Part shown: positions 12,384 to 37,700 of the stretch, one piece after another | Numbering within the stretch: position 1 is the first letter of the stretch | How the letters are laid out: the number at the start of each line of letters is the position of its first letter | Source: Bacteroidota bacterium | Lineage (GTDB): Bacteria; Bacteroidota; Bacteroidia; AKYH767-A; 2013-40CM-41-45 | Assembly: GCA_003151745.1 (NCBI GenBank) | Contig: PLYJ01000220.1 | Span: 86,630 to 150,629 of the forward strand | Direction: 5' to 3' | DNA length: 64,000 bases | Made by a program: the position numbers and the translations under genes | The notes under the pieces: generated by a model | What the model was told of the DNA's origin: nothing | What the model saw: the letters and a program-made list of their open reading frames with translations, nothing else | Databases searched by the model: none

Positions 12384-14521
12384 TTCTTTCCCTATTTGTT
12401 ACGCAAACAGCCTTTGCTCAGGGCAATTTACTGAGTATGCATGACGCTATTCTCAAGCAAAAAACAAGTCTTGCTCCTGCAAAACTGCAACAATTAATGT
12501 GGGTGAAAGGCACAAACAATTTCTCATACATTGACACCAACGATAATTCTGACATATTAATTATTGGTCTTGCTGAAAGCCGTAAACAGGTGAGGAAAAT
12601 TGGAACAACATTATCTCAAATAAATGATGCATTAGAACATGAACATTTTACTGCTTTGAAAACATTCCCAAAAATTCAATGGAAAAATGCCAACCAATTC
12701 ACATTCGAATGGGAAAAAAAATTATTTGCCTTTGATGTAAATGCAAAAACAATTGTTGTAGAGGCGAACCGAGATCTGGGTGAAGGAGCTGAAAATACGG
12801 ATATTGCAGACAAAACAAATTATGTAGCTTATACAATAAAAAATAATTTGTTTGTATCTGATGGCACAAACCAGCTGATCGTAACCAACGATGCCGATTC
12901 AAATATTGTGAATGGAAAATCAGTACACCGTGAAGAATTTGGCATTACCAAAGGAACATTCTGGTCGCCGAATGGTAATTTACTTGCCTTTTACAAGATG
13001 GATCAAACAATGGTAACCGATTATCCCATCATCGACTGGACCGTTCGTCCGGCGAAAGCCAACACCATTAAATATCCCATGGCCGGTGATACCAGCCACC
13101 AGGTGATAGTTGGCGTTTACAATGTGAATAGAGGCAAAACTATTTTTCTGAAAACGGGCGAACCCAAAGAACAATATTTAACCAACATTGCCTGGAGTCC
13201 GGATGAACAAAGCGTTTACATTGCTGTTTTAAATCGTGATCAGAATCATTTAAAACTGAATTCTTACAGTGCAATTACTGGTCTTTTTGAAAGAACATTG
13301 TTCGAAGAGACAGATAATAAATACGTTCAGCCCTTGCATCAAATGGTATTTGTACCCAACCATGCCGATCAATTTATCTGGCAATCGGAACGCGATGGAT
13401 ACAATCATTTGTATTTATATTCTACCAATGGAAATCTTCTTAAGCAACTCACCAAAGGCAACTGGACGGTAACTAATTTTATGGGCTTTGATGAAAAAGG
13501 GACAAAAGCTTTTTACACCTCAACGGCTGAAAGCCCAATTACACGTAATCTTTACAGTGTTGAATTTAAAAAAGGAAACAGTACAAAAATTACTTTAGGC
13601 GAAGGCACTCACACAGGTATGCTAAGTGGGAACGGAAATTATATTATTGACAATTTCCAAAGCATCACTGTTCCCAGAGAAATTGCTATATACACCACGA
13701 AAGGAAAAAAAATCCAGGTGATCAAACAATCTGAAAATCCTTTGAAAGATTATAAAACAGGAGAACTAAGCATCTTCAAATTAAAAAATTCAACTGCAGA
13801 TGATCTGTATTGCAGAATGTTTAAGCCCATTGATTTTGATTCAACAAAAAAATATCCTGTCATCGTTTATGTATATGGCGGACCGAATGTTCAGCTAATA
13901 AATAATACCTGGAATGGTGGTGGAGACCTTTGGTTTCAATACATGGCAGAGCGTGGCTTTGTTATATTTACATTGGATAGCAGAGGAAGTGAAAATCGCG
14001 GACAAGCATTTGAACAAGCTACCTTTCAGAATTTAGGGAAAGTTGAAATGCAGGATCAGATGGTGGGAATAAATTATCTGAAGAGTTTAAAATTTATTGA
14101 TGAGAAACGAATGGGTCTGATGGGATGGAGTTATGGTGGCTTCATGACCACATCCATCATGACACATTACCCCGATGTATTTAAAGCTGCTGTTGCAGGC
14201 GATCCGGTGATAGATTGGAGTTATTATGAAATAATGTATACCGAGCGCTATATGGACACACCACAAACAAATCCAATCGGATATAAAGAAACCAACGTTA
14301 TCAATTATGTGGATAGTTTAAAAGGTAAACTATTATTGATTCATGGTACTTCCGATGATATAGTTGTATGGCAACATAGTCTATTATTTTTAAAAGCATG
14401 CGTGGATAAAGGGAAGCAAGTAGATTATTTTGTTTATCCCGGACATGATCACAATGTGTTGGGCAAAGACAGGGTGCACTTATTCAATAAGATCACTGAT
14501 TATTTTATTGAGAATTTGTAG
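12347..14521 (+). CDS. Dipeptidyl-peptidase IV (S9B prolyl oligopeptidase family)
   Basis: Carries the GWSYGG nucleophile motif, HGTSDDIV and PGHDHN triad regions, and an N-terminal DPP-IV beta-propeller region. The proposed GTG start at 12347 gives the signal peptide (M)KIRQIRVIRVLFLSLFVTQTAFA/Q. The TTG start at 12299 in the track lies in repeat DNA. Confidence 0.85.
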   Translation: MKIRQIRVIRVLFLSLFVTQTAFAQGNLLSMHDAILKQKTSLAPAKLQQLMWVKGTNNFSYIDTNDNSDILIIGLAESRKQVRKIGTTLSQINDALEHEHFTALKTFPKIQWKNANQFTFEWEKKLFAFDVNAKTIVVEANRDLGEGAENTDIADKTNYVAYTIKNNLFVSDGTNQLIVTNDADSNIVNGKSVHREEFGITKGTFWSPNGNLLAFYKMDQTMVTDYPIIDWTVRPAKANTIKYPMAGDTSHQVIVGVYNVNRGKTIFLKTGEPKEQYLTNIAWSPDEQSVYIAVLNRDQNHLKLNSYSAITGLFERTLFEETDNKYVQPLHQMVFVPNHADQFIWQSERDGYNHLYLYSTNGNLLKQLTKGNWTVTNFMGFDEKGTKAFYTSTAESPITRNLYSVEFKKGNSTKITLGEGTHTGMLSGNGNYIIDNFQSITVPREIAIYTTKGKKIQVIKQSENPLKDYKTGELSIFKLKNSTADDLYCRMFKPIDFDSTKKYPVIVYVYGGPNVQLINNTWNGGGDLWFQYMAERGFVIFTLDSRGSENRGQAFEQATFQNLGKVEMQDQMVGINYLKSLKFIDEKRMGLMGWSYGGFMTTSIMTHYPDVFKAAVAGDPVIDWSYYEIMYTERYMDTPQTNPIGYKETNVINYVDSLKGKLLLIHGTSDDIVVWQHSLLFLKACVDKGKQVDYFVYPGHDHNVLGKDRVHLFNKITDYFIENL

Positions 14522-14546
14522 AATTATCAAAAGCCATCGCACATAT

Positions 14547-14596
14547 TTCGACAAGCTCAATATGACATCACGCACCGTCAGTCCGAGTTTGTCGAA
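14547..14596. repeat. Imperfect palindrome, possible terminator after the DPP-IV gene
   Basis: ttcgacaagctc (14547-14558) pairs with gagtttgtcgaa (14585-14596) with one G·T mismatch. Its translation produces the spurious ORF 14430..14615. Confidence 0.5.
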
Positions 14597-14669
14597 GACT
14601 TTGTGTTTTGTATAACAAACTATTAGATAAGTTTTCTCGAAAAGCCTACCTTTGCGGAATAAAATATTT

Positions 14670-14737
14670 GGTTTCGTAGTTCAATGGATACCCGCCCGAC
14701 TGAAAGACGTCAGTCGTTCGGGCGGGGAATAGAAGTT
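14670..14737 (+). pseudogene. Displaced 5' half of tRNA-Arg(CCU), nt 1-32, interrupted by a 36-nt hairpin in the D-loop
   Basis: ggtttcgtagttcaatggata + [36-nt insert] + gaatagaagtt is identical to nt 1-32 of the intact tRNA at 15006. The upstream flank cctacctttgcggaataaaatattt matches the flank of the 37178 copy. Confidence 0.8.
14691..14726. repeat. 36-nt GC-rich palindromic insert
   Basis: The sequence is cccgcccgactgaaagacgtcagtcgttcgggcggg, with outer arms cccgcccg/cgggcggg. It is the exact reverse complement of 37232-37267. Confidence 0.9.
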
Positions 14738-14745
14738 ACTGTATC

Positions 14746-15003
14746 ATGGAAGATAAACATTTCGTATATGTTCTTTGGAGCAAAGAATTCAGCAGAAAAT
14801 ATGTTGGTATGACTGAAGATACAGAGAATAGGTTGAAAGAACATAATTCTGGCAAGACAGTTTCCACTAAAGCATTTATTCCTTGGAAAATAATTTACAC
14901 AGAAAATTTTGAAACAAGAGCCCAAGCAAGAGTAAGAGAAAAGTATTTTAAAACTGCGGCAGGAAGAAAATTCTTAAAAGAAAAATTATCTTTACAAAAT
15001 TAA
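14746..15003 (+). CDS. GIY-YIG nuclease superfamily protein (small URI-domain, UPF0213-like)
   Basis: 85 aa. The sequence reads FVYVLWSKEFSRKYVGMTEDTENRLKEHNSG…, i.e. GIY-YIG-type (V)YVL…YVG plus the R..EH.. core. Confidence 0.85.
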   Translation: MEDKHFVYVLWSKEFSRKYVGMTEDTENRLKEHNSGKTVSTKAFIPWKIIYTENFETRAQARVREKYFKTAAGRKFLKEKLSLQN

Positions 15004-15005
15004 TT

Positions 15006-15077
15006 GGTTTCGTAGTTCAATGGATAGAATAGAAGTTTCCTAAACTTTTGATCCCAGTTCGATTCTGGGCGAGACCA
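15006..15077 (+). tRNA. tRNA-Arg (anticodon CCT), followed by an encoded CCA
   Basis: Hand-folded cloverleaf. The acceptor ggtttcg/cgagacc has one G·U. The D stem is gttc/gaat and the anticodon stem gaagt/acttt. The anticodon loop is ttCCTaa. The T arm is cccag-ttcgatt-ctggg, with discriminator A then cca. Confidence 0.9.
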
Positions 15078-15345
15078 CCACCTCTAAAACCATTGATATT
15101 AAAGGGCTTTGTTTTTCATCTCCACAGGAACATCGAACTTTTTTTATTGAAAAACAGACACATCCCTTTATATTCGCTATAAGAAGCATTTTATTACAAA
15201 ATAATAAACTGACCAATTTACACCAAAAAATATATTGTCAATTAGAGCCGAATTTGCATACTAAAAGCAGTTTTTTTATCTAATCTTGTAGTTACAATTT
15301 CGTTTTACAAATTTCATTATCTAAAAGAAACATCTTTAAAATCAC

Positions 15346-15423
15346 GTGAAAAGAGTAATAGAACATCTATATTTAATTTTTGTATTAATGGTTTCAACTA
15401 CTACATACAGCAAATACAATTGA
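15346..15423 (+). pseudogene. Orphan 5' fragment (leader plus signal peptide) of the T9SS cargo paralog family
   Basis: GTG…VKRVIEHLYLIFVLMVSTTTYSKYN* parallels (M)KTILIHLHLIFLLMLTTTTYSQ at 41876. The upstream sequence 15251-15345 aligns with the conserved leaders 40561-40717 and 41720-41875 (…acaatttcgttttacaaat…). Confidence 0.55.
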
Positions 15424-37150: not shown

Positions 37151-37177
37151 ACCTACCTTTGCAGAATAATAATATTT

Positions 37178-37319
37178 GGTTTCGTAGTTCAACGCCCGCC
37201 CGAACGTACCTTTTCGATACGGGCGGGGATACCCGCCCGAACGACTGACGTCTTTCAGTCGGGCGGGGAATATGAAGTTTCCTAAACTTTTGATCCCAGT
37301 TCATTTCTGGGCGAGACCA
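37178..37319 (+). pseudogene. Decayed second copy of tRNA-Arg(CCU) with two 36-nt GC-rich hairpin inserts in the D-loop
   Basis: The structure is ggtttcgtagttcaa[37193-37228]ata[37232-37267]gaatatgaagtttCCTaaacttt…cccagttcatttctgggcgagacca. There is a 1-nt insertion before the anticodon stem. The T-loop is ttcattt instead of ttcgatt, and there is no CCA. The upstream flank is shared with 14645-14669. Confidence 0.8.
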
Positions 37320-37700
37320 CTTTTAAACCTAAATAGCTTGATCCTATTGATGTTTGGAAACAAAATTTATCATTTACAATCTTGTTTTTGCTCTTCTTAC
37401 AACTCAAATAATAATCAAACGTGTCATCATTATACACTCGCAAGATCCACCAACATCTGCCGGACTTTAAATAACTAACCATTACCAAATTATCATCAAT
37501 AGGGTCTTTCATAGAAATAGTTTTTGTTTTATATATCTATGGAAAATAACAGAAAGAATTGTTTGAATTGTATAAAAGATTGTCAATCGACCACTCCTAT
37601 TGTGCTTTAGGAGTGTTTTCGTGTATTGGAAGTGTAGTATTTGAGTTGAAAATAAATGAAACTCCTGATTGCACCTGAATGGATTTAATAATAAAAACTA

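Follow-up and report, generated by a model that had tools for sequence, protein, structure and literature searches.

The subject of this analysis is a locus in a 64,000-nucleotide (nt) stretch of a Bacteroidota bacterium genome (contig PLYJ01000220.1), which we refer to throughout as the window and in which all coordinates are counted from the first nt. Between positions 14670 and 15080 a small GIY-YIG nuclease gene is enclosed by two copies of a tRNA-Arg(CCU), one of them intact and the other a partial, displaced duplicate that is interrupted by a GC-rich hairpin. The reading we favour, with a probability of roughly 0.55, is that a minimal Slx1/UPF0213-like nuclease and a hairpin cognate to it form a selfish two-part unit, which would persist in tRNA transcription units through nicking-driven recombination. 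The evidence that carries it is the recurrence of the layout at many tRNA genes, the near-constant presence of a hairpin in the duplicate, the agreement between hairpin type and nuclease clade, and a second tRNA-Arg(CCU) locus in the window that hairpins of the same kind have disabled. The features of the two loci are as follows.

14647..14654, + strand: TACCTTTG, a Bacteroidota-type -7 box 16 nt upstream of the displaced tRNA copy, with a putative promoter role
14670..14690, + strand: displaced tRNA-Arg(CCU) nt 1-21, the same sequence as 15006-15026
14691..14726, no strand assigned: GC-rich hairpin of 36 nt, CCCGCCCGA-loop-TCGGGCGGG, that splits tRNA nt 21 from nt 22 (full insert CCCGCCCGACTGAAAGACGTCAGTCGTTCGGGCGGG)
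14727..14737, + strand: displaced tRNA nt 22-32, the decaying rest of a longer duplicate
14738..14745, + strand: leader of 8 nt ahead of the start codon
14746..15003, + strand: gene for an 85-amino-acid (aa), single-domain GIY-YIG nuclease of the Slx1/UPF0213-like branch (open reading frame, Pfam and predicted structure)
15006..15080, + strand: intact, presumably functional tRNA-Arg(CCU), 2 nt past the stop codon of the nuclease gene (ARAGORN and Rfam)
37154..37161, + strand: TACCTTTG again, as the -7 box that precedes the second tRNA-Arg(CCU) locus
37178..37320, + strand: full-length tRNA-Arg(CCU) pseudogene with two D-loop hairpin inserts and point changes
37195..37227, no strand assigned: first hairpin insert of the pseudogene, following nt 15 in its D-loop, with a stem of the common family and another loop
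37232..37267, no strand assigned: second hairpin insert of the pseudogene, after nt 21, the exact reverse complement of 14691-14726

The original prediction, made from the window alone, described nt 1-32 of the tRNA as present twice, once at 14670-14737 around a hairpin and once within the complete tRNA at 15006, with only an 8-nt leader and an 85-aa GIY-YIG open reading frame (ORF) between the copies. The duplication was confirmed base for base, and the intervening gene by the ORF listing and by Pfam (PF01541). The 21-mer GGTTTCGTAGTTCAATGGATA occurs exactly twice in the window, at 14670 and 15006, and in none of 100 shuffled versions. The proposed check on the tRNA itself returned an intact tRNA-Arg(CCU) at 15006-15080 from both ARAGORN and Rfam (63 bits). 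Folded as single-stranded DNA, the hairpin at 14691-14726 has a predicted free energy of -13.9 kcal/mol (z = -4.8). Just three hairpins of this kind are present in the 64 kb (14691-14726, 37195-37227 and 37232-37267), and the ORF at 14746-15003 is the only GIY-YIG gene there.

A scan of one genome per species recovered 80 loci with relatives of the ORF (49-81% identity), giving 81 with the window; most are from Bacteroidota, with a few from Ignavibacteriota and other phyla. A tRNA gene on the same strand adjoins the ORF in 74/81 loci, and in 72 of these 74 a partial tRNA duplicate is found on the far side of the ORF, so that the tRNA linkage and the duplication were both recovered in other genomes. 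The opposite pattern, a syntenic nuclease gene lacking the partial copy and homologues never linked to a tRNA, which the original prediction had named as pointing to a one-off duplication, is clearly not what is observed. The linked tRNA is a tRNA-Arg in 67/74 loci and covers five anticodons (tcg 20, cct 17, tct 11, acg 11, ccg 8), the others being Glu (3), Met (2), Tyr (1) and Lys (1). The order duplicate, ORF, tRNA seen in the window is shared by 55 loci, and the order tRNA, ORF, duplicate is found in 19. Outside Bacteroidota the same architecture was seen at a tRNA-Lys gene of WWE3 and, in other phyla, at genes for tRNA-Gly, tRNA-Leu and tRNA-Val.

It can be seen from these loci that the hairpin, which had been taken as an incidental interruption, is the conserved landmark of the layout. 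A GC-rich palindrome interrupts 71/72 duplicates; in 58/82 cases the insert follows nt 21 or nt 22, a single structural position where the D-loop ends, and in 8/82 it is found at nt 55/56, in the T-loop. The commonest palindrome among the duplicates is a perfect 20-mer, CCTGCCTGCCGGCAGGCAGG, and that of the window's clade is CCCGCCCG-loop-CGGGCGGG. Where a duplicate bears two hairpins, the extra one is located 4-14 nt upstream of the main one. Across the 80 loci the hairpin motifs cluster within ~500 nt of the ORF, with hardly any beyond that distance. A neighbour-joining tree of the ORFs places the long-loop CCCGCCCG/CCTGCCCG and short CCTGCCTG hairpin types in different ORF clades, and hairpin type tracks ORF clade across host taxa and across tRNA identities, as would be expected if protein and DNA structure co-evolve as a pair. 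At some loci the unit of hairpin, tRNA fragment and ORF is amplified in tandem, as in an array of four to five copies with a period of ~363 nt (L055, 1779-3290; further arrays in L007, L018, L047 and L062). Two-domain fusions of the GIY-YIG protein are present in the protein database and probably derive from such arrays.

The second tRNA-Arg(CCU) locus of the window shows what the hairpins may do when they enter a tRNA gene. The sequence at 37178 had been described as a second tRNA copy, but it is not an intact gene: neither ARAGORN nor Rfam calls a tRNA there, and besides the two hairpins there are point changes, which affect its T-loop and anticodon stem. In silico removal of both hairpins restored an ARAGORN call of tRNA-Arg(cct). 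The orthologous position in the closest relative, in which the flanking hydrolase gene is 90% identical (L321, 3455-3527), holds an intact, hairpin-free tRNA-Arg(CCT), with ~75 extra nt between the promoter box and the tRNA. Judged from the aligned sequences, the two loci form a before-and-after pair for hairpin insertion, and the hairpins have disabled a spare tRNA-Arg(CCU) gene in the window's genome. The search for empty sites thus yielded a hairpin-free orthologue for the 37178 locus and no clean one for the 14670 locus. No second GIY-YIG gene or remnant of one was found near 37178.

The two loci of the window also appear to have exchanged sequence. The flanks at 14645-14669 and 37152-37177 are more alike than either is to its own orthologue, which suggests gene conversion between the two tRNA-Arg(CCU) loci, and such conversion may have carried a hairpin across as well. 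The claim that both copies share the same native upstream flank holds as a resemblance and fails as an identity, since the flanks differ by one substitution and one indel, and the flank was absent from the 37178 site in a search allowing up to three mismatches. The hairpin of the syntenic relative L002 matches 37267-37232 on the opposite strand, and another relative, L387, holds an insert site equivalent to 37195-37227.

The exact 20-mer CCTGCCTGCCGGCAGGCAGG is dispersed well beyond the nuclease loci. It is present in at least 120 stretches (L081-L200), mostly as a solo copy, and the matches listed come from Patescibacteria, Omnitrophota, Planctomycetota, Proteobacteria, Nitrospirota and Bacteroidota, so that lineages of the candidate phyla radiation are among the carriers; this sharing of one identical palindrome across phyla needs explaining. 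Near a tRNA lie 17 of the 120 listed stretches and beside a GIY-YIG gene lie 5, which rules out the idea that the dispersed 20-mer always resides in a tRNA gene or next to the nuclease; excision of the palindrome restores a tRNA at 1/125 sites. Among the matches listed, 11% of solo 20-mers occupy the loop of an inverted repeat that was already there (stem of 6 bp or more), against 2% for random positions, and they are found beside short direct repeats (words of at least 7 nt) in 15% against 5%. A 29-kb viral contig (IMGVR_UViG_3300037242_000417; L485, L492 and L493) holds at least six 20-mer copies, and the stretches of it examined contain no GIY-YIG gene.

We next consider the nuclease. Its assignment to the GIY-YIG superfamily is borne out by profile, residues and fold alike. 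The ORF product scores 53.6 bits against PF01541 (cut-off 22.6, E 2.8e-14); Y8, Y19, G21, R29, H33, N34, E65 and K69, which include the catalytic residues, are invariant in 48 sequences; and an AlphaFold2 model (pLDDT 93) gives the order strand-strand-helix-helix-strand-helix-helix. The best Foldseek matches in the PDB are UPF0213 BH0048 and the Slx1 nuclease domain (TM 0.63-0.72), with I-TevI and UvrC matching much more weakly (I-TevI E 0.6). By sequence, the nearest solved proteins are again UPF0213 members, EF2693 and BH0048 (1YWL, E 2.1e-7; 1ZG2, E 1.1e-5), and Bacillus subtilis YazA is ~39% identical to the window protein. According to Pfam and to the model, the catalytic domain accounts for all 85 aa, and a separate DNA-binding domain is absent. 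A profile search returned 7,656 cluster representatives at E<=1e-10. NCBIfam gave no match at E<=0.01, a library that may simply hold no model for the UPF0213-like family. Membership of a known defence system or phage family was rejected, as PADLOC gave marginal matches at most (best E 3.6e-4, 17.7 bits) and PHROGs gave none. A plasmid or phage origin was likewise rejected, given the near-absence of ORF relatives from plasmid records (1), phage records (5, all weak) and 2.9 million viral contigs (5).

The history of the 14670 locus can be followed in relatives. Two Bacteroidota loci (L001 and L002) are syntenic with it upstream, where an S9 peptidase gene shows 75-76% nucleotide identity, and both carry the unit. 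Compared with L002, the window shows 68% identity in the upstream flank and 95% in displaced nt 1-21; the hairpin is identical at 36/36 positions including the loop, and identity is 65% in the leader, 79% in the ORF and 99% in the tRNA. The hairpin is thus conserved to the same degree as the tRNA. Nucleotide 16 has changed jointly in both tRNA copies, being T16/T16 in the window and C16/C16 in L001. The ORF is under purifying selection, with a ratio of non-synonymous to synonymous substitution (dN/dS) of 0.11-0.13 at dS 0.74-0.94; the neighbouring peptidase has a dN/dS of 0.09 at dS 1.6. A third relative, the metagenomic contig L387 (3981-4136), is syntenic with 14645-15080 on both sides and has no ORF: after the promoter box come nt 1-15 with mutations, a hairpin in decay, nt 19-31, a run of eleven bases matching the 3' end of the ORF, and the intact tRNA. 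This order identifies L387 as an ORF-less remnant, from which the gene has been lost. Relatives at the 14670 locus are occupied (L001, L002), reduced to an ORF-less remnant (L387) or without a tRNA at that place, and among 80 metagenomic relatives of the peptidase none has the ORF at the peptidase-flanked site. In two further loci (L384, 3175-3247; L388, 2494-2566) a tRNA-Arg(CCT) without ORF or hairpin is found just downstream of the S9 peptidase gene on the opposite strand, the tRNA neighbourhood being rearranged in that lineage.

These data bear on the alternative that the gene is a domesticated nuclease in the service of the host, and that duplicates and hairpins arise as side effects of its work, which might be to resolve hairpins, R-loops or stalled forks at heavily transcribed tRNA genes, or to restrict incoming single-stranded DNA as SsnA does. 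We regard this as unlikely, even if it is the best placed of the alternatives. A dN/dS of ~0.1 and the retention of the gene at one locus across dS ~0.7-0.9 speak for it, as do the very large size of the family (the 7,656 representatives above), the structure-specific nucleases (Slx1) and conserved UPF0213 proteins that are its closest structures, and the host role in transformation proposed for Ssn (PMC11893778). Against it stand the loss of the ORF in L387, where the tRNA was kept, the absence of the ORF from all 80 relatives of the flanking gene, the tandem amplification of the unit, the occupation of many different tRNA genes by ORFs whose tree departs from host taxonomy, and the destruction of a spare tRNA gene by hairpins.

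The boundaries of the duplicates are informative about a second alternative, in which a homing-type endonuclease element made a single site-specific insertion at position 32/33, where the anticodon loop begins on its 5' side, and brought its own replacement 5' half of tRNA-Arg(CCU). It is true that nt 1-32 are duplicated exactly around the ORF, that homologues of the ORF are linked to tRNA genes, and that T4 has, in SegB, a free-standing homing gene of GIY-YIG type that lies within a tRNA cluster beside tRNA-Arg (PMC2988022). However, the duplicate always retains the ORF-distal end of the tRNA, which in the window is the promoter end, and its other end is not fixed. In loci of the window's orientation it begins at nt 1 in 53/53 cases, and in the opposite orientation it extends to the last tRNA nt in 16/19; the ORF-proximal end varies from nt 28 to nt 74, and the tRNA leader (2-30 nt) is often part of the duplication. 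Position 32/33 was correctly recognised as the end of homology in the window, but it does not hold as a defined insertion point: since the displaced copy reaches ~nt 39 in the syntenic L001 and L002, the break is lineage-specific erosion and not an insertion junction.

The proposal of a carried 5' half fares no better, because five Arg isoacceptors and Met, Glu, Tyr, Lys, Gly, Leu and Val tRNAs are occupied, and one carried half would misfit the acceptor stems of at least eight tRNA species. Each displaced copy instead matches its local tRNA. In loci of the window's orientation the identity between dead and live copies is 99.3% over nt 1-22, 96% over nt 23-35 and 90% over nt 36-55. Any target within the tRNA would still be present in the intact tRNA, an 85-aa single-domain protein has no DNA-binding module to find one, and the conserved hairpin is left out of account. 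We consider a homing element of this type improbable. The comparison with islands that restore tRNA 3' ends, of which the window was said to be the 5' mirror image, describes the window's layout well and does not extend to the 19 loci in which a 3'-retaining duplicate is downstream. Movement between Arg isoacceptors driven by homology is also a weak explanation, because their D-stems differ and GGATAG is the only stretch they have in common.

We turn to expression. The -7 box TAnnTTTG is situated 16 nt upstream of both tRNA-Arg(CCU) loci of the window, and in loci of the window's orientation the 60 nt ahead of the displaced copy contain it in 24/53 cases, against 4/53 for the 60 nt ahead of the intact tRNA, in agreement with the proposal that the native promoter stays with the displaced copy. 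TAnnTTTG is not enriched in the window, so that one occurrence proves little. Because the box remains with the displaced copy and no plus-strand -7 box is present between 14655 and 15006, the likeliest reading of the sequence is that displaced copy, ORF and tRNA form one transcript from the tRNA promoter, from which RNase P would free the tRNA; transcription of the nuclease from the tRNA promoter had been predicted at the outset. A search of 14450-15350, which takes in the sequence between the two copies, gave no terminator-like site, and the hairpin is not an intrinsic terminator because no U-run follows it. The ORF stop codon is inside the tRNA or within 10 nt of its first nt in 46/55 loci with the window's order. 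In 34/55 the stop is a TAG within the tRNA itself, at nt 8-10 or 21-23 (for example L001, 3261-3270); in the window it precedes the tRNA by 2 nt. With a stop codon inside the tRNA, processing by RNase P would leave a non-stop mRNA, and tRNA maturation may in this way be coupled to expression of the nuclease.

In a third alternative the truncated tRNA and hairpin act as RNA, as a structured 5' leader or 3' trailer controlling the stability, processing or translation of the nuclease mRNA or of the tRNA precursor, and the hairpin is conserved on that account. In loci of the window's orientation the 20-mer precedes the ORF match by 29-124 nt, counted from its own start, and mostly by 37-50 nt, the tRNA-internal stop in 34/55 loci would set RNase P cleavage in competition with translation, and RNA hairpins regulate T4 homing-endonuclease genes (PMC2988022). 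Such a device is nevertheless quite improbable, given that the hairpin is downstream of the ORF in 19 loci, that the 20-mer is scattered in unrelated and often non-transcribed-looking contexts of many phyla, that hairpins occur in either polarity and that the missing U-run excludes an intrinsic terminator. A one-off local duplication or chance resemblance is refuted by the 21-nt exact match that 100 shuffles never produced and by the recurrence of the layout in 72 independent loci.

Two further candidates were rejected. One is a group I intron or other RNA family, as Rfam finds the tRNA alone in the window and the intact tRNA is uninterrupted. The other is an integrase-type island: the stretch between the copies, to which the search for an integrase was confined, has no ORF of integrase size and none but the GIY-YIG gene that exceeds 71 aa, and it is the 5' part of the tRNA that is duplicated, not the 3' part.

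We return to the selfish two-part unit, and to how it might work. Its first part would be the minimal GIY-YIG nuclease of ~80-90 aa, of Slx1/UPF0213 type and without a DNA-binding domain; its second part would be the short GC-rich palindrome, able to form a DNA hairpin, in the D-loop or more rarely the T-loop of the dead tRNA duplicate. The tRNA promoter at 14647 would drive a single transcript from which RNase P releases the tRNA. By analogy with Ssn at NTS, the nuclease would recognise its own hairpin in single-stranded or extruded DNA and nick beside it. The nicks could provoke recombination between the tRNA repeats, by which nt 1-22 would be homogenised and tandem arrays formed, and the same recombination might copy the hairpin, and sometimes the gene, into other tRNA copies. 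The unit would in this manner persist and spread as a selfish passenger of an essential and highly transcribed gene. A broader proposal, which we hold tentatively and at somewhat less than even odds, is that such units make up an unrecognised class of selfish elements, ranging from Bacteroidota to the candidate phyla radiation, that are guided by a palindrome of roughly 20-40 nt, colonise tRNA D- and T-loops, duplicate their target and thereby spare the tRNA, ride the tRNA promoter and can knock out spare tRNA copies by seeding hairpins into them.

Several points weigh against the selfish unit. Binding and cleavage of the hairpin by the nuclease are predictions, and identity to an NTS-flanked Ssn protein is 25%, with the published SRM motif absent. 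An 85-aa hydrolase cannot itself insert DNA, which leaves the source of the duplication and of new hairpins unexplained, and the strong preference for tRNA-Arg has no explanation. Vertical inheritance and strong purifying selection would suit a gene useful to the host equally well. The 14670 locus has no clean empty site among the relatives. Since 115/120 listed 20-mer stretches are not beside a GIY-YIG gene, action in trans has to be assumed for most copies. Finally, many of the loci come from metagenome-assembled genomes (MAGs), with the identical layout seen in isolates (L008, L016 and L062 among them).

If the proposal is correct, it describes a new way for selfish DNA to inhabit bacterial genomes, in which the unit occupies the interior of a tRNA transcription unit and a built-in duplicate keeps the tRNA working, and is not placed beside the tRNA by an integrase. 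It would also provide a genomic context and a candidate DNA substrate for thousands of unannotated mini-proteins of the 'GIY-YIG nuclease family', and would account for hairpin-interrupted tRNA pseudogenes that tRNA finders miss. Each pairing of nuclease and hairpin would be a candidate programmable structure- or single-strand-specific nuclease, as proposed for Ssn.

The closest known systems are the Ssn proteins, which are single-domain GIY-YIG nucleases of the 94-aa class that bind the NTS/SRM hairpin repeats flanking their own genes and cut only single-stranded DNA, a few nt upstream of the hairpin (Chenal et al., 2025, PMC11893778). tRNA goes unmentioned in that paper (PMC11893778). The window's unit shares with them a small single-domain enzyme (85 aa against 94 aa, within the size criterion of <150 aa for cd10448), a GC-rich hairpin repeat that flanks the gene and is also dispersed in genomes, and an apparent co-evolution of hairpin and protein. 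It differs in that the window hairpin is on one side of the gene only, within a duplicated tRNA. The SRM/NTS motif HGTCWY..RNCYNB was found neither in the window (0) nor in any of the other loci (0/80). Assignment to Ssn calls for a BLASTP match to N. meningitidis SsnA at E<1e-10 with 75% coverage or more, or for cd10448 as the top CDD match. An NTS-ORF-NTS locus used as a proxy for SsnA (L253) gave a family-profile match at E 1e-9 and a pairwise identity of 25% (E 1e-3), and UPF0213 proteins are closer to the window protein than this proxy is. On these sequence comparisons the unit resembles the Ssn/NTS systems but lacks their published motif, and membership of the window nuclease in Ssn is not established. 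The proxy is in its own right a textbook NTS-ssn-NTS locus in a Sphingorhabdus MAG (L253, 4362-4882), and the canonical Neisseria NTS hairpin was seen to be spread across many phyla, in at least 120 stretches.

In sequence and fold the nearest solved relatives are the UPF0213/COG2827 proteins (YhbQ, YazA; 1YWL, 1ZG2) and the Slx1 domain, which have the same catalytic residues. Slx1 has in addition a RING domain and a partner, Slx4, unlike the window protein. To our knowledge no link has been made between UPF0213 or Slx1 proteins and tRNA duplicates or palindromes.

The free-standing homing gene segB of T4, situated between tRNA-Arg and tRNA-Ile (PMC2988022), is comparable to the window gene as a selfish GIY-YIG gene in a tRNA region that is co-expressed with its neighbours. 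The Seg proteins differ in possessing DNA-binding domains, with which they attack the gene-less allele as duplex DNA, whereas the window protein consists of the catalytic domain only; they are associated with neither a target duplication nor a hairpin, and they are phage genes, while the window family is almost absent from phage records. In the REP/RAYT and IS200/IS605 systems, too, a small nuclease gene goes together with palindromic hairpins that are scattered about and are recognised as single-stranded DNA, and insertion takes place beside specific short targets. Their enzymes are HUH (Y1) tyrosine transposases that form covalent intermediates, in contrast to the hydrolytic GIY-YIG protein that is the only gene product of the window's unit, and the window-type hairpin is found within tRNA duplicates. 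Genomic islands and prophages likewise use a tRNA gene as their residence and are flanked by a partial tRNA duplication; theirs is a duplication of the 3' end through the att site of an integrase, and the elements themselves are kilobases long, whereas the window's unit measures ~340 nt and duplicates the 5' part.

No published description of this architecture was found in the full-text literature, which was searched for the palindrome sequence too and in which most subscription-journal papers fall outside the search; this agrees with the original statement that no GIY-YIG element of such a design was known. By all appearances the three-part layout is a selfish genetic element of a kind not described before.

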